From Candidatus Bathyarchaeota archaeon (GTDB taxonomy: Archaea > Thermoproteota > Bathyarchaeia > Bathyarchaeales > Bathycorpusculaceae): a stretch of DNA of 64,000 bases. The position numbers and the translations under genes were made by a program. The notes below the pieces were generated by a model that saw only the letters and a program-made list of their open reading frames with translations, made no database searches and was not told where the DNA came from. Positions 6,092-48,162 of this stretch are shown in pieces. The stretch spans positions 32,001 to 96,000 of the forward strand of contig CAVTZU010000011.1 in the NCBI GenBank assembly GCA_963739305.1, written 5' to 3'. Position 1 is the first letter of the stretch. Every line of letters starts with the position of its first letter.

Positions 6092-6532
6092 TTGATGGTC
6101 CCTAAAATGCTAAGGGTTAACGTTATTGTATCCAATATTTCTGCTGAACGCTTCCTAGATTTTCGAAAACCCTTCCCTCAAATTCACATCAGCACGAACC
6201 TCAACCTGACGAGTATGGAGAAGAAACCGGACGATTCTTTGGAAGTCCCGTTCATCCTAACAATCAGCTATAACCCCTCTGTAGCTCAGATTAACTTAAA
6301 GGGAACAGCATACGTTGTCGGAGAAAAGCACGAAATAGAACAGGCGTACAATGATTATGAGGCAAAGAAGCCCCCGCCGCCAGTGGTCATTCAATCCGTC
6401 TCAAACGTCGCTTTCATCGAGTCGGTTCTTATATCAAGAACTCTGAACGTTCCTCCACCAATTCCGTTGCCTCAGATTCCCGAAAACAAACCAATCGAAA
6501 AGAGGCCCTCCGACGGAGACTATACGCGTTAG
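6092..6532 (+). CDS. Conserved archaeal hypothetical protein (possible SecB-like fold)
   Basis: Beta-rich N-terminal half, a helix, then LNVPPPIPLP tail; follows rps27ae. Confidence 0.6.
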   Translation: MMVPKMLRVNVIVSNISAERFLDFRKPFPQIHISTNLNLTSMEKKPDDSLEVPFILTISYNPSVAQINLKGTAYVVGEKHEIEQAYNDYEAKKPPPPVVIQSVSNVAFIESVLISRTLNVPPPIPLPQIPENKPIEKRPSDGDYTR

Positions 6533-42250: not shown

Positions 42251-43116
42251 CTCATTCCCTTGAAGACGAGTCTGGTTCTCAAACGTGGATAAAAGTTCTC
42301 CGTGAACCTTATGAATGAAGTGGCGTTCTTCGACCTTGTGATCGTAAGGGACGGAAGCCTGGAAGTTACTCGCTTCTTGTAATGTCCGTCGATCAGCACC
42401 TGCGTGCTCCTCGGCTTGTTGACTTCGATCCTGAGTGTCGTGTCTGCAGGGAAAACTATCGGGCGGAAAATGCTTAAGGGGCACACTGGGGTGAGAACGA
42501 ACGCGTCGATGCACGGATCCAATACAGGTCCTCCCGCAGAGAGCGAGTAACCCGTGGATCCTGTCTGCGTTGCTACCATCAAGCCATCAGATTGGCACAC
42601 GACGATTGGTTCATCGTTCCTGAAAATCTTCGTGTAGAGTAGTTTGCCTGGTTCATCAGGAGAAACCACAACTTCATTCAAAGCGTCAGGAAACTGCGAG
42701 CTGTCAGCATTGATGGCAAGCTTCATACATTCTTCAATCCTAAACTTGCCTGCAAGTATTCTGTCGACCTTTGCCAAGGCATCTTCCGGTTCGACTTCAG
42801 TCAGAAAACCCCTGACTCCCATGTTCACACCGAGCAACGGTGGCTCGGGTTTGGGCAAAGAAATGCATGTCCTGAGTATTGTTCCGTCTCCGCCTATCGT
42901 TATGACAAAATCAGCCTTCATGCGGTCAAGTGGAACGAATGTTACATCGCCACTGACTTTCTTGGACAAAGTGTCTTCGACATAGACTTCCAGTCCCCGT
43001 GCTCTGAGGTGTTTGGCAAGATCTTCGGCGAGCGTGATCGCACGTTTCCTGTCGTAGCGAGCGACCAAGCCGACATTCTTGAACACGGTTTTCACCCTTG
43101 AGCCTAGTTCCGACAC
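42247..43116 (-). CDS. nadK: NAD kinase
   Basis: GGDGT, NE, TGSTGYSLSAGGP. Confidence 0.94.
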   Translation of the reverse strand: MSELGSRVKTVFKNVGLVARYDRKRAITLAEDLAKHLRARGLEVYVEDTLSKKVSGDVTFVPLDRMKADFVITIGGDGTILRTCISLPKPEPPLLGVNMGVRGFLTEVEPEDALAKVDRILAGKFRIEECMKLAINADSSQFPDALNEVVVSPDEPGKLLYTKIFRNDEPIVVCQSDGLMVATQTGSTGYSLSAGGPVLDPCIDAFVLTPVCPLSIFRPIVFPADTTLRIEVNKPRSTQVLIDGHYKKRVTSRLPSLTITRSKNATSFIRFTENFYPRLRTRLVFKGMR

Positions 43117-43119
43117 TCT

Positions 43120-43147
43120 AATCTATATATGGGTGCTGTTTAAAATT
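43120..43147 (+). repeat. Direct repeat, left copy
   Basis: AATCTATATATGGGTGCTGTTTAAAATT. Confidence 0.9.
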
Positions 43148-43148
43148 T

Positions 43149-43298
43149 GCGCGCGGTAAGAAACTGGGAGCCTTGCTTGAAAGGAAGAAAGGAGAGAAGG
43201 AAGACGTATTCTACTTAGATGAATTGCTCGATTTGATTCGTGAAGCATCTTTAGAAGACGAAACTGAAGCAAAGATGAGAAGGGTCACAGAGTCGTAG
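43149..43298 (+). pseudogene. Gene fragment or small ORF between two (GC)n runs
   Basis: Open frame ARGKKLGALLERKKGEKEDVFYLDELLDLIREASLEDETEAKMRRVTES*; TAG abuts GCGCGCGC. Confidence 0.4.
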
Positions 43299-43428
43299 CG
43301 CGCGCCACTTCATACACCAACCGACTTATTAACGCAGCAAGTGGTTCTTTACGCAGGGGTTAATCGTCTCACCTGTTTCCACCACGCCTAGTTAAGAAAA
43401 ACTGATATACCCACAGAACCAAGTCAGG

Positions 43429-44235
43429 ATGAGCGATAACATGAGAAACTTGAATGGGAACAATCTGAGAATTGGTTTGCTGGCAATTCTTGTGTTAGCA
43501 GTATTTGCTCCCACAATGGTTCATGCCAAAGATTACACAGTTGGAGTCAAAGCTGGAGACTGGGTCAAGTATGGCCAAATCACGGTCAGCTGGACTGGAA
43601 ACGGAACCGAGCCTTCATACGTCGCAGAGACAAGGAAGATTGACTGGACGAGAATAGACGTCCTAAGCGTTGCGGGTACAACAGCCAGCTTGAACCAAAC
43701 TGTTCACTTCAACAACGGTACGCAAACGTCCCAAAGCTTGGACACAGACGTCCAAAGCAGTAACTCACCCGGAGCGTCATACCTCATCGCGTCCAACTTG
43801 ACAGCTGGAGACCCGATCAGGCCACAAACACCCGGAACCACCATAAATCAAACTGTGACCGGGCTGTACGCAGGAGGAAACAGAAACGTCAACATAATAG
43901 ACTTCAAAGGTAACCTGCCAGGAATGGGGGCGAACAACACGTTCGAATACAAGACATACTGGGACCAAAGCACCGGCGTCATGGTTGAACTATACATAAA
44001 CGCGACAGACATTACCAATTCTGGCGGGTACGAAGAAATCTCGTTCAAGGCAATTGAGACAAACCTGTGGTCAGCAAATACTCTTGACATTATACAGAAC
44101 AATTTAATCTATATCATTGCTGGAATAGCCGTCATAATAGTCATCGCGGCGGCAACTATCGTCCTCCGAAGAAGAAAACCCTCAACTTCCCAACAAGCTC
44201 CACCTCCTCCGACGCTTCCACCCCCGCCGCCATAA
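43429..44235 (+). CDS. Secreted, C-terminally membrane-anchored protein with Pro-rich tail
   Basis: Signal peptide, VGVKAGDWVKY, N-x-T sequons, C-terminal TM plus RRRK and poly-Pro. Confidence 0.85.
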   Translation: MSDNMRNLNGNNLRIGLLAILVLAVFAPTMVHAKDYTVGVKAGDWVKYGQITVSWTGNGTEPSYVAETRKIDWTRIDVLSVAGTTASLNQTVHFNNGTQTSQSLDTDVQSSNSPGASYLIASNLTAGDPIRPQTPGTTINQTVTGLYAGGNRNVNIIDFKGNLPGMGANNTFEYKTYWDQSTGVMVELYINATDITNSGGYEEISFKAIETNLWSANTLDIIQNNLIYIIAGIAVIIVIAAATIVLRRRKPSTSQQAPPPPTLPPPPP

Positions 44236-44548
44236 GACAGCAAAGCGCGCGTCTGATGACTTTGGGCGATGCTTCCGTATACAACTAACTCCAAGTATCA
44301 CAAGAAATACCACCGCCGAGCTGAATTGCCGCTCTCTTTCGTCAACTGATTCTAGTTTTCAGAGATAACTCGCTTTTCAGTGCGCGATTCAACCGCGCGC
44401 GTATGCTCAACGCGGTAATCCCCAGATGCACTTGTTACGTTATCAAGATCAAAAGAGCTTCAGAGCCCACTGTTCGTTTTTTGGTACAATGATGTTCTAA
44501 GGCTTAGCATTAAGCACTTCAGTGTTCTCATTGTTTTAGGGTGAAAAA

Positions 44549-45262
44549 ATGAAGAGACGAATGAAACTGGAACTAGTTTTGGCCATATTGATGACTCTTG
44601 CAATTGCGTCCCTGGCGATCTATGCGAGCCTGCCGAAAAATCCAGATAGAACCGTGCTGTACATTCAGTCAATTCGCAGCTATGGTTCGTCATCTTTTCA
44701 AGGCACGTCCACTCAACAAGTCATCACCGAGAACATTCAAGGTGAATTGAGAAAAGGGGAATTTGAGACCACAGTTGAAGGATTAAAGAATCTTACCTTG
44801 GTTTATGGTGGAAGAATCCCTAGTCTGCATATGGCCTATGACAATGAGTTATGGAGCGGAACACTGGAATGCAAATTGCCTACAGACAATGTTACATGGT
44901 TCACTTTTGAAGTCAGAAGACTCATCAACGCCCACGGAAAAGTCACGCACATCCTAATAGACGTGAATGAAGTTGAAGTGAACCAGACCCAGACGCCAGA
45001 AATACCACTCTCGGATATCAGCATCTACCTTCAAGAATACGTGGAAGGCTCATCACCTTTCATGAACCAACTTGGCGCAGTCGTTCCTCTGTTGACCACA
45101 GGTCTGCTTTGGATTGCCGAAGGACTCATCATCGCAGTGCCGCTATGCTTCGCGTGCCTCGGAGTCGTCCTAATTGTGAGCCGTGGAATACTTCCGGTCT
45201 GGAAGAGACAGTTCAGAAACAAAATCCCGGCAAAAGAAGTAGCACAAAAGGTCAGCAAGTAG
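44549..45262 (+). CDS. Membrane protein (DUF4349-like architecture)
   Basis: N-terminal TM, extracellular alpha/beta domain, C-terminal TM hairpin. Confidence 0.7.
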   Translation: MKRRMKLELVLAILMTLAIASLAIYASLPKNPDRTVLYIQSIRSYGSSSFQGTSTQQVITENIQGELRKGEFETTVEGLKNLTLVYGGRIPSLHMAYDNELWSGTLECKLPTDNVTWFTFEVRRLINAHGKVTHILIDVNEVEVNQTQTPEIPLSDISIYLQEYVEGSSPFMNQLGAVVPLLTTGLLWIAEGLIIAVPLCFACLGVVLIVSRGILPVWKRQFRNKIPAKEVAQKVSK

Positions 45263-45319
45263 CGCGCGCGCTCTATTCTATATTGGAACTTCCAGCTTTA
45301 TTTAAGGTCTGGATACACT

Positions 45320-45619
45320 ATGGTTGAGAAGAGGTTCAAATTATCTGCACGCATAAGTAGTGATAATTCATCAGCGATCAAGCCGGTGCTTGAACGAATC
45401 ATAGACAATGAAGGAACCATCAAGCCCACGGGCGAAGGATTTGAAGTCAACGCAGAGCTCAATGGAGAAAGCGCCAGGGACCTAAACCGCATGCTACTCT
45501 CAGAGATGCGTAAGGCCGAGAAGAAGACCAGAATCCGCGCAGAATGGACCTCGGGCAACACGATCGAAAGGTTCTTCGATTACGTGCCAAAGGCTAGCGC
45601 GCGCTGCGCAAAAACTTAA
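45320..45619 (+). CDS. Small hypothetical protein
   Basis: 99-aa ORF with TTTAAG TATA upstream; (GC)4 run near its 3' end. Confidence 0.65.
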   Translation: MVEKRFKLSARISSDNSSAIKPVLERIIDNEGTIKPTGEGFEVNAELNGESARDLNRMLLSEMRKAEKKTRIRAEWTSGNTIERFFDYVPKASARCAKT

Positions 45620-45654
45620 TTCCCTATTCTGACTATCTGAGTGTGGTGATTGCG

Positions 45655-45747
45655 TTGAGCACTGGAAGCACTAAGAAGAAACCAATGACTAAAAAGGAAA
45701 GAGAAGAGAAAAGAAGAAAGCACAAAGAGAAACGCTTGAAGAAGTAG
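45655..45747 (+). CDS. Very basic 30-aa peptide (missed by ORF track)
   Basis: GGTGAT SD, TTG start; MSTGSTKKKPMTKKEREEKRRKHKEKRLKK. Confidence 0.5.
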   Translation: MSTGSTKKKPMTKKEREEKRRKHKEKRLKK

Positions 45748-45949
45748 GCTCAATCGTTGGGCATTGTTCATTCTTAGCAACCTTTTTGATCTCACGAATC
45801 CGCCTTTTTGCAAACTTTATAGTTCTTTGGGGCCTTTCTGCCGAAGAAATCACGAGTTGCTCTTCTAATAGACGAAAGGAATTAATCGCTTGGTTTTCTT
45901 CACGCAGTCGCGCTATTCTCGTGCGTGCGAAGACAATAGGGCGAGGTTT

Positions 45950-46507
45950 CTATTCGTAGAATATGAGGTTTTGTTCCTCCAATCTTTCGTGAAGCTTATG
46001 CACTGCGTCATAAACGTCCTGTTCTCTCTTCGCTCCAGTGCAAACAAGGTTCCCGCTTGCGAATATCAATATGACCACCTTAGGCTCGTCCATCCTGTAG
46101 ATCAATCCTGGAAACTGCTCCGGCTCATACATGGTTTTTCCAAGCGTGCTCGCCTCTTCCAACTCTATCCTTCCGCCCAAACTTGCTGAGGAAACTATGT
46201 TCTGAATCTTTGACTCGGGCTTGCTGATGATGATTATTCCGCCTTTTTTCAACTCTTTGACAACTGTCATAATAGCCCTGCGCGCCAATTTTTCCGATTT
46301 CGCTCCTGTGCAAACCATTTTTCCAGAGTTGAAAATCAGTGTAGCCGTCTTCGGTTTCTTAAGCCTAAACACAAGTCCCGGGAACTGTTCGGGACGATAT
46401 TCTGCGCTTGGATAACTCTTCACAATAGCGTTTAAGTCAATTTTCTGGTTTAGAGTGGCAGTGGCAACAACGTTCTGAATGATTACTATAGCTTTGGTCT
46501 TCGGCAT
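45950..46507 (-). CDS. tbp: TATA-box binding protein (probable accessory paralog)
   Basis: Two repeats: IQNVVAT/IQNIVSS, PEQFPGL, IFNSGKMVCTGAK/IFASGNLVCTGAK. Confidence 0.96.
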   Translation of the reverse strand: MPKTKAIVIIQNVVATATLNQKIDLNAIVKSYPSAEYRPEQFPGLVFRLKKPKTATLIFNSGKMVCTGAKSEKLARRAIMTVVKELKKGGIIIISKPESKIQNIVSSASLGGRIELEEASTLGKTMYEPEQFPGLIYRMDEPKVVILIFASGNLVCTGAKREQDVYDAVHKLHERLEEQNLIFYE

Positions 46508-46520
46508 TAGAAACCACTTC

Positions 46521-47198
46521 TTATGGTGCGCGCGTGCATTCGATGACGCTTAAGCTTCCGCTTCTCCCCAGTCGCAACTGCCTTTCACCTCTGAACCAGG
46601 TTACTTTGCCGTTCTTGACGTCAATTGCGTCGCCCTTGTGTACCATGCTGATCTGGTGGTTCCATAAACTCATTTTCATTGAACCTGTTTCGTCTTTGAT
46701 AAGTGCGTTTGATATACACGCAGTCGTTCCATATCTCGTGTAGACCATTTTAGATTCTGGAATCTCGAGCACCTCTGCTTTGAGGCTGACCTTTTTCATT
46801 CCAACTTTCAAGTTCCCAATCTTGGATGTTACACCCTCGAAATTCTTGACTGAGGAAGTTCTGGCCAAAATTGTTTCCGTGTAGCCTTCGAGCTGATTCT
46901 TTCCTCGCAAGATGGCAATCGATATAGGAAATTGAGCTACAACCTTTCGCGCGCGCTTTCGACCCTTGGTAAAGAGAAAAATCGCTGAATTTTTCGTCCT
47001 CTTACGACACTTTATAGCCAACGGCTTACATTCTGACCTGCCGTGATTCCAGGCTTCCACAATGCGATTGAAGAATTCACTAGCATCAACCTTATGCAAA
47101 ATCGCTATTTTAGCAAGGTTCTCCAGAATCCTTCTATCTTTGTATGAAAACATGCTGTCAAGAGGCCTGCCTCTACCTCTCCAAATTTGCTTAGCCAT
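46521..47198 (-). CDS. OB-fold (RPA/SSB-like) protein with N-terminal extension
   Basis: KIGNLKVGM...IKDETGSMKMSLWN...GDAIDVKNG...FRGERQLRLGRSG. Confidence 0.85.
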   Translation of the reverse strand: MAKQIWRGRGRPLDSMFSYKDRRILENLAKIAILHKVDASEFFNRIVEAWNHGRSECKPLAIKCRKRTKNSAIFLFTKGRKRARKVVAQFPISIAILRGKNQLEGYTETILARTSSVKNFEGVTSKIGNLKVGMKKVSLKAEVLEIPESKMVYTRYGTTACISNALIKDETGSMKMSLWNHQISMVHKGDAIDVKNGKVTWFRGERQLRLGRSGSLSVIECTRAP

Positions 47199-47478
47199 CT
47201 AACTTGTTTCCACTCTGTTGTTTTTGACTCGACAAATCCATCGCCAAAATAATAGATCTGACGCGCACATCTCAATATTCAACATCACATATATAGCTTG
47301 GGTGCTAGGCGCGAGGCATAAGTCAAGTCTTGTACTCGGACGCGCTACACACGCAGGTCTAGCGTTCTACTACAACTTAATTTTTCGCAATTTGCCAAGA
47401 CGGGCCTTAAGCCAGACCCGATCACTATCTCGGCCAATAACACTACGACCATGGCACGAATTGACAGAATAATCAAGT

Positions 47479-47612
47479 GAAGGTCGGTTTGGGGGAGTAG
47501 CATCGCTCCCGACTCCCCCTTCGCTCCGTGTAGTCGCTCCCCTATTGTCTCTAGGGAAAAGGTATGATGTTTTGTTTCGATCATGAAGTCGTTTGGCTCT
47601 CGCCAAACTCCC
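47479..47612 (-). ncRNA. Putative structured RNA or miniature element (four hairpins)
   Basis: GTTTGGC-GAGA-GCCAAAC, ATGAT/ATCAT, CCCTA/TAGGG and GGGGGAGT/ACTCCCCC stems; GGAGCGA three times. Confidence 0.4.
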
Positions 47613-47706
47613 ATCGATGCGAGTGACGCCGTTTGCTGACGGAAAACCTCGTGCGCTCAGAAGCCTTGGACGTCGACAATGTAAAGGTGCCGAAAAGTAA
47701 GTGCTA

Positions 47707-47734
47707 AATCTATATATGGGTGTTGTTTAAAATT
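47707..47734 (+). repeat. Direct repeat, right copy (contains probable eIF5A TATA box)
   Basis: AATCTATATATGGGTGTTGTTTAAAATT, 27/28 identical to the left copy. Confidence 0.9.
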
Positions 47735-47769: not shown

Positions 47770-48162
47770 ATGAGCAAACCTGTTGATGTGGGGAGCCTCA
47801 GAGTGGGAGGCTACATGATTATTGACGGTGAACCGTGTCACATAGTCGACATAACGAAGTCAAAACCTGGCAAACATGGTTCTGCCAAGTTTAGAATAGT
47901 GGCCATCGGCGTGTTTGACGGTCAAAAACGACAGTTTGTCAAGCCTGTGGATTTGGGCGCGGAGGTCCCGATTATTGACAAACGGATGGGTCAAGTGTAT
48001 GCTGTCACTCCAAGCGGTGTTCAGATAATGGATTTAGAGACGTATGAGTATTTTGACGCTCCATATCCACAAGAGGAAGAGCTTAAAGGTAAGCTTACCC
48101 AGGGCGCAGAAATCGAGTACTGGAAGATTCTGGGCAGAACGAAGATAATGCGCATAAAGTAG
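47770..48162 (+). CDS. eif5a: Translation factor aIF5A
   Basis: Hypusine motif KSKPGKHGSAK. Confidence 0.96.
   Translation: MSKPVDVGSLRVGGYMIIDGEPCHIVDITKSKPGKHGSAKFRIVAIGVFDGQKRQFVKPVDLGAEVPIIDKRMGQVYAVTPSGVQIMDLETYEYFDAPYPQEEELKGKLTQGAEIEYWKILGRTKIMRIK

Follow-up and report, generated by a model that had tools for sequence, protein, structure and literature searches.

Alternating GC runs at gene and fragment seams in a peat archaeon and some of its Bathyarchaeia relatives point to an undescribed mode of gene assembly and swapping

A mosaic island between the NADK and aIF5A genes

The stretch of DNA analysed here (64 kb, hereafter the window) contains a 4.56-kb insert between the genes for NAD kinase (NADK) and aIF5A, which are adjacent in relatives and show no island between them in four genomes (G001, G002, G004 and G008). 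The insert is flanked by two copies of a 28-bp direct repeat, identical at 27 of 28 positions, which is single-copy in the uninterrupted NADK/aIF5A spacer of the same four genomes. Judged from sequence comparison, the island is a mosaic, accessory insert (Table 1).

Table 1. Features of the island and other GC runs in the window (G000, the genome under study; other G numbers, related genomes)
Feature	Position	Strand	Content or location	Comparison with other copies and genomes
6-nt runs (five)	1115, 11874, 21327, 37034, 46280
Run outside the island (7 nt)	17571
Direct repeat, left copy, 28 bp	43120..43147		Divergent promoter region shared by the NAD kinase and aIF5A genes
Run 1, GCGCGCG (7 nt)	43149..43155		Left edge of the 4.56-kb insert	Right repeat copy and empty sites of four relatives read AAAATTGCTG, run-free
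Orphan segment, runs 1-2	43156..43297	+	41-codon ORF 43173-43298	No match among 40 relatives
Run 2, GCGCGCGC (8 nt)	43298..43305		Left border of module A	G002 homology begins exactly here, with the same run in another context; 7-of-8 version in G008
Module A	43306..44244	+	Predicted membrane protein gene 43429-44235; no Pfam family (Pfam scan)	77-81% identical to copies elsewhere in G002, G005, G008 and G000 (C11:119716-120575)
Run 3, GCGCGCG (7 nt)	44245..44251		Right border of module A	Past this position four other copies of module A continue with common run-free sequence
Orphan segment, runs 3-4	44252..44393			No match in relatives
Run 4, CGCGCGCG (8 nt)	44394..44401		Left border of module B	G005 homology begins at 44402; G005 itself has gtgcgtgc 2 nt off
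Module B	44402..45261	+	Predicted membrane protein gene 44549-45262; no Pfam family (Pfam scan)	87% identical to G005 C7:312605-313467
Run 5, (GC)5 (10 nt)	45262..45271		Between modules B and C	Module B homology stops at 45262, module C homology begins at 45276
Module C	45272..45596	+	ORF 45320-45619, original 3' end replaced at the run	86-92% identical to G001 and G010, whose ORFs go on differently after ...ccaaaggc
Run 6, GCGCGCGC (8 nt)	45597..45604		Between modules C and D
Module D	45601..45778	+	Multi-copy mini-module of ~175 bp; short lysine-rich ORF that ends at 45747	84-94% identical to copies in G000 (C13), G001, G004, G005 and G008
Module E	45943..47311	-	TATA-binding protein gene 45950-46507 (Pfam TBP, 2e-60) and OB-fold Ssb-like gene 46521-47198 (Ssb-like_OB, 1.4e-9)	85-89% identical to five copies: G001 (two), G002, G005 and G008
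Run 7, GCGCGCG (7 nt)	46528..46534		Last codons of the OB-fold gene; no breakpoint	Five relatives' copies: GCGCGCGC in three, GCGTGTGC in L023 (second G001 copy), GTGGGTGC in G005
Run 8, CGCGCGCGC (9 nt)	46948..46956		Inside the OB-fold ORF; no breakpoint	Substitution variants and one 12-nt gap
Orphan right-hand end of insert	47312..47706			No match in relatives
Direct repeat, right copy, 28 bp	47707..47734		Followed by aIF5A, 47770-48162

A scan of the entire window yields nine maximal alternating G/C runs of at least 7 nt, and a recount agrees with the original prediction that eight of these, 7-10 nt long, are packed within 43149-46956, with one in the remaining ~60 kb. On both strands together, GCGCGCG has 17 matches in the window, 16 of them inside the 3.8 kb, compared with a mean of 6.01 (sd 2.77) in 100 dinucleotide-preserving shuffles of the window, 0 of which reach 17. 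The placement described for individual runs is borne out as well: the run at 43149 begins 1 nt past the left repeat copy, those at 43298 and 45262 start on the G of TAG stop codons, the run at 44245 begins 9 nt past a stop end (44235), and those at 45597 and 46528 fall within the last codons of ORFs 45320-45619 (+) and 46521-47198 (-), the run at 46948 being located inside the latter ORF.

The proposal that the runs punctuate junctions holds for six of them (43149, 43298, 44245, 44394, 45262 and 45597), all no more than 5 nt from the start or stop of homology to genomes of the same genus, but not for those at 46528 and 46948, across which homology is unbroken in the TBP and OB-fold module and where relatives differ by substitutions. 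Four of the six other copies of module D begin at a run (L020, L021, L022 and L023), the copy L024 has a run 3 nt ahead of its start, and the orientation of this module relative to module E is reversed in G001, G005 and G008. No run is present at the junction of the right end of the insert with the repeat.

Sequence data other than the assembly itself back the first four of the eight runs: public peat-metagenome contigs, built independently but from sequencing runs that are possibly the source samples, span 43048-43415, 43998-44918 and 44088-44567 with 0-1 differences. Furthermore, assemblies of other species carry runs at homologous places, which argues against an assembly artefact.

Abundance and form of the runs in the genome

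Contrary to the original framing, the runs extend well beyond the island, with 501 runs of at least 7 nt in the genome. GCGCGCGC is found 359 times in the 2.3-Mb genome as against 26.3 expected from a first-order Markov model, and 250 times in spacers between genes as against 3.3. The usual form is a 10-bp palindrome, AGCGCGCGCT (A-GCGCGCGC-T), with 82 occurrences compared with 1.9 expected and with 4 for the backward-read control TCGCGCGCGA. A is found at position -1 in 152 of 296 cases and T at +1 in 159 of 296, and the flank profile of 347 runs displays no conservation outside positions -2 to +2. Run lengths peak at 8 (398, 150, 202, 96 and 48 runs of 6, 7, 8, 9 and 10 nt, respectively, and 5 of at least 11), unlike other dinucleotide runs, which fall off steadily with length.

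Spacers hold about 70% of the runs: 146 of the 202 8-mers and 104 of 149 longer runs lie between gene calls, which are a crude longest-ORF approximation, as compared with 15% of random positions. The density per kb is 0.93 in convergent, 0.74 in tandem and 0.63 in divergent spacers, and there is no preferred spacing between runs. Runs lie on both sides of 83 genes, and there are arrays of single genes separated by runs (C15:110219-116009). Runs lie within 100 nt of nine of the 72 contig ends (1.6 expected), in a genome which, like all those compared, is a metagenome bin and which has 7.8% contamination and contains overlapping near-identical contigs. Within spacers, transition variants of the motif are about three times as frequent as transversion variants; once formed, the runs decay by transitions.

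An octameric palindrome so far above expectation (359 vs 26.3) resembles HIP1 (GCGATCGC) of cyanobacteria, likewise an 8-bp palindrome in lineage-specific excess. HIP1 copies are known to border a deletion, and the motif is frequent within genes, spread by substitution and tied to a methyltransferase. A comparable scenario, in which the runs would spread by biased repair or methylation-linked substitution and their placement at junctions would be incidental, accommodates the excess of transition variants and the presence or absence of the runs at 46528 and 46948 among species by substitution. Substitution turnover was, however, seen at these two coding sites only, T:G-type variants are not depleted, and the runs, unlike HIP1, lie mostly in spacers and at homology breakpoints, an association that such a scenario does not predict. 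In addition, a C-5 DNA methyltransferase (PF00145) has 0 matches in G000 and is present in 4 of 41 genomes (relatives plus G000), in a search covering C-5 enzymes, with N4/N6 enzymes as further candidates. The sole fusion found of an N6_N4 methyltransferase with an Mrr-type nuclease, which might also supply the enzyme pair that restriction-site mediated insertion at GCGCGCGC would require, does not clearly track the motif, with homologues in 5 of 20 motif-rich genomes (those with 10 or more AGCGCGCGCT and no more than 5 controls; 20 of 201 sampled Bathyarchaeia) and in 24 of the 181 others, and with its best non-self match in a motif-poor genome. We regard a HIP1-like origin of the runs as highly improbable.

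Runs at the ends of homology

Among the ends of intragenomic repeats, 37 of 605 lie within 3 nt of a run; random spacer positions do so in 1.8% and gene boundaries in 0.8% of cases. Inside repeats that are less than 93% identical, only four runs are found, and 0 of 59 interior runs are clean insertions or deletions. The allele on contig C3 is gtaGCGCGCGCtgg, with a single run, and that on C2 consists of the flanks of C3 plus a 4.2-kb insert with a run at each joint; the single-run allele fits target duplication as well as deletion between two runs. Contigs C13 and C17 have different segments, of 2.0 kb and 2.9 kb, between shared flanks, with runs at the joints, and near-identical contigs also differ structurally at some places where no run is involved.

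Comparison between species yields a similar picture. In a four-module array (C15:111393-112662), one or more genomes have an adjoining run at 18 of the 20 ends of the 10 cross-species alignments, and the modules share 94-99% identity, compared with 67-75% for the core genes of the species concerned. One and the same mini-gene module breaks off at different points in G000, G001, G002, G008 and G009, with a run at each truncation, and longer copies of the module are run-free at these points. On the 3' side of the PRC-barrel gene, G000 has TA+GCGCGCGC and five relatives have TAG followed by unrelated sequence; the runs flanking the M29 peptidase gene are missing in four orthologues; and for several backbone joints neither side carries a run in any relative. 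Of the 28 repeat ends that coincide with a run and are informative, 17 have a run-free partner copy and 11 a partner with a run at or near the same end. Modules thus take runs along with them as well, and some modules keep the same end plus run in differing contexts. Given that kin genomes are not independent, counts across the genus overstate the support.

The excess in spacers, the position at homology ends and truncations, and the run-free orthologous sites together indicate that the runs mark DNA joints. We estimate the probability that GC runs are recombination joints, whichever the mechanism, at roughly 60%, and conclude that in this Bathyarchaeia lineage the seams of unrelated DNA pieces, namely whole genes with their promoter, mini-genes of 150-500 bp, or gene fragments, very often carry (GC)4, typically AGCGCGCGCT.

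The runs might instead be passive hot spots, i.e., A(GC)4T could be a frequent spacer motif retained on other grounds, for instance because a dimeric protein binds it, because it signals a boundary or termination, or because it forms Z-DNA, and its G+C-rich 8-10 bp would merely provide microhomology on which illegitimate recombination occasionally acts. A palindrome with preferred flanks is what protein recognition leads one to expect, run density is similar in the three types of spacers, the C2/C3 insertion and the C13/C17 replacement need only crossover from run to run, and the modules with a constant end and run fit as well. Nevertheless, orthologous spacers do not conserve the runs (NADK/aIF5A, the PRC-barrel gene and M29), the ~60 kb of core genes that the window contains are nearly devoid of runs, and microhomology between pre-existing runs cannot produce truncated module ends that abut runs where the longer copies are run-free. 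We consider a purely passive role unlikely.

Integron-like capture, the first idea of the original prediction, would mean that cassettes end in fixed recombination sites, with the runs as their crossover cores and a dedicated recombinase to use them. The likeness includes single-gene arrays punctuated by a recurring short sequence, the 83 genes flanked by runs, the single-run allele opposite an insert allele with two runs, heterogeneous accessory cargo genes without a recombinase of their own, and near-identical cassettes common to several species. G000 has 15 matches to the tyrosine-recombinase family (Phage_integrase), and two of the nine listed with coordinates, which are matches to the family only, lie within 5 kb of run clusters. 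However, attC sites are imperfect inverted repeats of ~60-140 bp with fixed crossover points, next to the IntI integrase, whereas the site here has 8-12 bp, and the flank profile of the 347 runs reveals no paired inverted cores. The ends are ragged rather than fixed, as is evident from the mini-gene module truncated variously across genomes with a run at each truncation; the arrays are scattered; and the modules inspected closely, namely the C15 array and module C of the window, contain, as judged by eye, TATA sequences resembling promoters. Nor is there evidence of a linked integrase: a Pfam scan found no recombinase in or beside the window island, and recombinase counts do not track the motif, with 10-11 matches each in G012, G020 and G040, where GCGCGCGC occurs 14, 3 and 1 times. 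We consider integron-like capture very unlikely and conclude that the runs are not fixed integron-type sites, and that they are added or duplicated at the joint and later re-used as crossover points.

A possible joining mechanism and candidate enzymes

Under the reading of the runs as joints, ragged ends would be joined through a self-complementary sequence by a process of the DNA end-joining type. Our preferred version, itself tentative, has the joining process write the palindrome into the joint as a filler or linker of fixed sequence; we favor it in view of the backbone joints that are run-free on either side in all relatives. In a second version, which we find somewhat unlikely, fragments would be captured where an existing palindrome has undergone a staggered break, with fill-in duplicating the palindrome. 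In either version, existing runs may then act as crossover or breakage points of 8-10 bp, which could result in insertion, loss, replacement or inversion of single genes and in the passage of modules between species. The window island would be one mosaic of this kind, built inside a duplicated promoter.

By extension, we tentatively hypothesize that several Bathyarchaeia families carry a DNA-joining system that writes or duplicates the fixed self-complementary linker A(GC)4T at every joint that it makes. If so, any two ends tagged with A(GC)4T could pair, arrays of promoter-bearing genes, mini-genes and fragments could be assembled without att sites or homology, and the joints would be re-usable, which would account for the near-identity of modules in species with about 30% divergence of their core genes. 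A literature search found no description of such joints, and the occurrence of the motif at gene and fragment seams in this peat archaeon and some relatives points to an undescribed mode of gene assembly and swapping.

Among the three ideas put forward in the original prediction, filler added during end joining comes closest to the appearance of the joints, and the search it proposed for a co-occurring end-joining gene turns up an operon in G000 that encodes a LigD-type PrimPol domain, Ku, and a ligase plus phosphoesterase (C32:50048-53119). Ku/LigD end joining accepts arbitrary ends, uses 0-3 nt of microhomology and can add nucleotides. The known junctional additions are short and of no fixed sequence, in contrast to the joints described here, and we know of no end-joining system that writes a fixed 10-bp filler. 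Moreover, Ku does not track the motif, being present in 5 of the 20 motif-rich Bathyarchaeia genomes and in 40 of the 181 others, so that the runs are not a signature seen wherever these genes occur; the run-rich G024 has neither Ku nor the LigD polymerase.

CRISPR spacer acquisition and casposon integration share with the joints the repeat-insert-repeat arrangement, the duplication of a short palindromic target and the arbitrary insert, but the repeats in the present case measure 8-10 bp and the inserts, which include genes, range from 0.1 to several kb; G000 contains only fragments of cas1, and Cas1 does not track the motif. The dif modules of Acinetobacter plasmids and the dRS3/NIME repeat arrays of Neisseria likewise consist of separate modules or short spacer units that have a short recurring site as boundary and that occur in varying contexts and orders. 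The dif and dRS3/NIME sites have 20-28 bp, are bound by known recombinases and define fixed module ends, none of which holds here.

The runs could finally derive from a small transposable element (MITE- or IS-like), as its footprints or its ends, an explanation that we find hardly credible. Many runs have TA-like flanks, two inter-run segments of the window are exactly 157 bp long, and the multi-copy module D usually begins at a run. Yet, duplicate contigs aside, the 92 inter-run segments of 60-450 bp do not fall into any sequence family, as opposed to the repeated interior of a MITE or insertion sequence, the runs show no preferred spacing, and there are no terminal repeats beyond the run. 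The earlier suggestion of mobile-element scars is not supported, with neither conserved ends nor a repeated family between the runs. No multi-copy transposase-like family stood out; the sole family enriched near runs is a GT4 glycosyltransferase.

Alternating G/C runs in the window and the genome

Listing the maximal alternating G/C runs of at least 7 nt across the window yields nine, eight of them (runs 1–8) packed in 3.8 kb as originally noticed, and their placement with respect to stop codons and the ends of ORFs likewise agrees with the original description. The word GCGCGCG, counted on both strands, has 17 matches in the window, 16 of which fall inside the 3.8 kb, and none of 100 dinucleotide-preserving shuffles reaches 17 (mean 6.0, sd 2.8). 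Independently assembled public contigs from peat metagenomes, whose underlying sequencing runs may be the source samples of the genome, cover runs 1–4 with 0–1 differences, and several runs are found again at homologous positions in the assemblies of other species.

The source genome (G000; 2.32 Mb in 36 contigs, the window being C11:32001-96000) contains 501 runs of at least 7 nt. Runs of 6, 7, 8, 9 and 10 nt number 398, 150, 202, 96 and 48, respectively, and there are 5 of at least 11 nt, a shape that is not a decay curve; the five other dinucleotide types drop steadily with length, with 13–65 runs of length 8. The excess is phase-specific, with 178 exact GCGCGCGC vs 24 CGCGCGCG. Under a first-order Markov model, GCGCGCGC is expected 26.3 times in the whole genome and is observed 359 times, 250 times in the spacers between gene calls (3.3 expected) and 97 times inside gene calls (22.7 expected). 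AGCGCGCGCT is found 82 times (1.9 expected), the control TCGCGCGCGA, which is AGCGCGCGCT with its letters read backwards, 4 times (2.4 expected), and TAGCGCGCGCTA 29 times (about 0 expected); a maximal-order Markov expectation is uninformative because the 7-mers are enriched as well. The flanks of the G000 runs show no conservation past 2 bases on each side.

With gene calls defined by a greedy longest-ORF approximation (2514 genes, 85% of the genome), 146 of the 202 8-mers and 104 of the 149 longer runs lie between gene calls, compared with 15% of random positions, at a density that is alike in convergent, tandem and divergent spacers. The runs are clustered (neighbour distance below 1 kb for 42% vs 19% expected), and 2001 genes have no flanking run, 430 have one on a single side and 83 have one on each side. 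A spacing of 149 nt, found twice in the window, does not point to a repeat unit, the genomic excess at 142–152 nt being weak and the inter-run segments having no common sequence. A run lies within 100 nt of 9 of the 72 contig ends (1.6 expected).

A mosaic insert between the NADK and aIF5A genes

The genes for NAD kinase (NADK) and aIF5A are adjacent in four relatives (G001, G002, G004 and G008), with one divergent promoter region between them. In the window, 28 bp of this region are doubled (27/28 identical) and flank 4559 bp, such that, with the divergent promoter duplicated around the insert, NADK and aIF5A each retain a promoter copy. This duplication is a signature separate from the runs, which mark the left junction only. 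The insert itself is a mosaic, each part of which matches another place in genomes of the same genus (see the table of features); the NADK gene beside it is 71–75% identical to those of the same genomes, and three stretches of the insert have no match in relatives.

Features discussed in the text, with coordinates (C, contigs of G000; L, individual loci)
Feature	Location	Description
Runs 1–8	window 43149, 43298, 44245, 44394, 45262, 45597, 46528, 46948	alternating G/C tracts
Ninth run	window 17571	
Promoter repeat, left copy	window 43120-43147	
Promoter repeat, right copy	window 47707-47734	
Module A	window 43306-44244	membrane protein gene; 77-81% identity to relatives' copies
Module B	window 44402-45261	membrane protein gene; 87% identity to relatives' copies
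Module C	window 45272-45596	small ORF; 86-92% identity to relatives' copies
Module D	window 45601-45778	multi-copy 175-bp unit; 84-94% identity to relatives' copies
Module E	window 45943-47311	TBP + OB-fold (Ssb-like) genes; 85-89% identity to relatives' copies
Mini-module ORFs	window 45644-45747; L037 2485-2573, 2746-2873	lysine-/arginine-rich
TBP paralogues	C14:49536-50117; C8:38156-38740; C17:16110-16689	match spans TBP gene only
Module array	C15:111393-112662	four modules
Possible degraded tract	L035 about 6257-6277 (C26:15256-15276)	tgtgtgtctgtctgtgcgtgt
Dispersed repeat	L035 3797-3843 (C26:12796-12842)	~45 bp
Insertion relative to C30	C8:6376-9042	2.7 kb
End-joining operon	L067 8049-11120 (C32:50048-53119)	complete; LigD PrimPol, Ku, ligase + 3'-phosphoesterase
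Methyltransferase fusion	L068 1417-2988 (C28:38049-39617)	523 residues; N6_N4 DNA methyltransferase + Mrr-type restriction nuclease domain
cas1 C-terminal fragments	C18:9381-9596; C18:15069-15263	

The borders of the island were examined base by base. Run 1 begins 1 nt past the left repeat copy, at a place that is run-free in the uninterrupted sites, and run 2 is the exact start of homology to G002, which has an identical run in another context. Run 3 is the end of module A, four other copies of which run on together without a run; module B starts after run 4 and stops at run 5; and run 6 ends module C inside its ORF, whose copies in G001 and G010 extend further. Runs 7 and 8 lie inside module E, where the homology is unbroken and relatives vary by substitutions (e.g., GCGTGTGC). 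The proposal that homology breaks at the runs is therefore borne out for runs 1–6 but not for runs 7 and 8, across which it continues, and there is no run at the right end of the insert. Two joints in metagenome contigs, 45596->47705 (X2) and 44282->47588 (X3), each present in one contig with sides of 26–32 nt and 90% likeness, are too weak to be used, although the X2 joint has its start precisely at run 6 and its end at most 2 nt from the start of the right repeat. Rfam has no matches on the island or on the C15 array described below.

The TBP gene is multi-copy in the genus and behaves here as accessory, mobile cargo; the pair with the OB-fold gene is found twice in G001, and G000 encodes three further TBP paralogues. 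Short predicted ORFs of about 20–45 codons, rich in lysine and arginine, are present in many mini-modules, with near-identical copies across species.

Ragged ends, orthologous sites and the reading of the runs

The comparison of core and accessory regions with relatives covers the window and five other regions. On C15, four modules of 230–514 bp form an array, each with small ORFs and with runs at the bounds. The modules are 93.5–99.2% identical to copies in G001, G002, G008 and G009, which occur in different contexts and orders, and the M29 peptidase gene beside the array is 72–73% identical to those genomes. Among 10 alignments of the array, 18 of the 20 ends adjoin a run in one or both genomes. 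These ends are ragged: on the right, module 1 stops at ctctagaaGCGCGCGC in G000 and G001 but 27 nt before that, at aaaggaGCGCGCGC, in G008 and G002, and on the left its end is shifted inwards by 31 nt in G002 and outwards by 17 nt in G001, with no run at the truncation points in the longer copies. Similarly, a module with an M48 peptidase is common to G000 and G008 up to ctgataGCGCGCG, after which the two diverge, and extends without a run in G001 and G002. By reading of the alignments, 6 of the 9 truncated ends with a known longer copy have 1–3 nt in common with the run. Ragged module ends contradict an integron-like capture at a fixed site, one of the processes originally suggested; scars of a transposon, another suggestion, are contradicted as well, there being no element ends and no families.

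Downstream of a PRC-barrel gene, five relatives (G001, G002, G004, G008 and G009) read gtgtag followed by common sequence. In G000, gtgtaGCGCGCGC leads into unrelated DNA, the sole homologue of which, in G004, has no run ahead of it. Both flanks of the M29 gene have a run in G000, and both are run-free in four orthologues. These run-free orthologous sites suggest that runs arise with new joints and are not conserved spacer signals, which contradicts a role as a conserved cis-signal.

In a self-comparison of G000 (repeats of at least 100 bp and at least 78% identity), 37 of 605 distinct repeat ends are at most 3 nt away from a run, against 0.26% of random positions, 1.8% of random spacer positions and 0.8% of gene boundaries. 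For 29 intragenomic repeat ends at a run, 28 of them usable (one partner copy reached a contig end), the partner copy lacks the run in 17 and has a match of 7-of-8 or better at or within 25 nt in 11; 5% of random spacer stretches contain such a match. The 59 interior runs in repeats include 51 unchanged, 6 substituted (mostly by transitions), 2 with a 1-nt gap and no clean insertion or deletion of a run; older repeats (below 93% identity) have few interior runs (4 cases). Once formed, the runs decay by transitions. In one locus, tgtgtgtctgtctgtgcgtgt, located between two runs, looks like an alternating GC tract with many C -> T changes; the same locus carries a short dispersed repeat unrelated to the runs, with many matches (80–97% identity) in each of five genomes of the genus.

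Several G000 contigs (C2/C3/C6, C13/C17, C12/C21, C7/C31/C8, C23/C29/C35 and others) overlap at 95–99% identity, which indicates that the bin, with 7.8% contamination, is a mixture of closely related strains, a natural polymorphism but also a caveat on copy numbers. C3 reads gtaGCGCGCGCtgg, and C2, with the same flanks, has a 4.2-kb insert of cohesin/dockerin and solute-binding genes with a run at both joints. C13 and C17 have common flanks around unrelated segments of 2.0 kb vs 2.9 kb, with runs at the joints. Structural differences without a run also exist, namely a second C2/C3 replacement and a 2.7-kb element in C8. The latter, with a direct repeat of 22–27 bp and a 392-codon ORF, looks like a conventional integrating element.

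We propose, with a probability of about 0.6, that the runs are seams at which unrelated pieces of DNA were joined. The association with breakpoints and the missing methyltransferase contradict a HIP1-like substitution process. For the way in which such joints would form, we consider two versions. The palindrome might be written at the joint, a tentative but preferred scenario that is supported by backbone joints at which both sides are run-free in all relatives. Alternatively, and somewhat less probably, a palindrome already in place would capture fragments at a staggered break and would thereby be duplicated; the strict 10-bp form and the single-run allele speak for this version. Under either version, existing runs would be re-used later, which would explain how segments are inserted or replaced and why module D lies in inverted orientation. 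The GC-run motif as a junction mark is not described in the literature consulted, which includes one paper on short tandem repeats.

If this reading is correct, gene flux in an uncultured and very abundant class of archaea would follow a new route, a cassette system set by a 10-bp tag and not by a recombinase-bound site. The tag would provide a simple sequence handle to delimit accessory modules in metagenome-assembled genomes and would explain where such assemblies break, as at the contig ends of G000. It would also imply a new enzyme activity, which would either cut at a specific sequence or tail and ligate ends in a sequence-specific way, and which would be of interest both as a tool and for the biology of DNA repair.

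Candidate agents and distribution of the motif

The cargo flanked by runs is varied and ordinary (TBP, serpin, peptidases, SDR, cupin, STAND ATPase, glycan-related and many family-less proteins), with no recombinase among the scanned run-flanked genes; the paralogue family enriched near runs is a GT4 glycosyltransferase and was discarded as a candidate. The co-occurring PrimPol/end-joining gene that had been suggested is indeed encoded in G000, as a complete operon, but Ku does not track the motif across the class. LigD PrimPol and Ku seemed genus-linked inside the order; among 201 sampled Bathyarchaeia genomes, Ku is found in 45, mostly of two families, and in 5 of 20 motif-rich vs 40 of 181 other genomes, so that it cannot be the determinant. 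The presence of LigD PrimPol, C-5 methyltransferases (none in G000), tyrosine recombinases, Cas1 (fragments only in G000) and the methyltransferase–Mrr fusion across genomes does not track the motif either, and N6_Mtase is present in G000 only as a broken gene. The cas1 remnants, one of which has stop codons, look like gene fragments inside mosaic regions; the second adjoins a module ending at a run.

GCGCGCGC is abundant in each of the ten other genomes of the genus (29–464 copies). In the family's other genera there are mostly 0–7, the exceptions being G024 (227), where the run flanks are TA...TA as in G000, G030 (53), G019 (30) and G039 (19). Across the class, 20 of the 201 genomes, from several families, are motif-rich, defined as at least 10 AGCGCGCGCT and at most 5 backward-read controls, with up to 131 AGCGCGCGCT; given this patchy spread, the responsible gene should be findable by comparative genomics. 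Within the genus, G005 has the lowest number of GCGCGCGC for its size (128), the fewest among the large genomes. This genome (loci L017 and L024) has the TG-variants GTGGGTGC, GCGTGTGC and gtgcgtgc, which may come from sequencing error, at three positions that are occupied by a run in other species, and its match to LigD PrimPol consists of two separate pieces.
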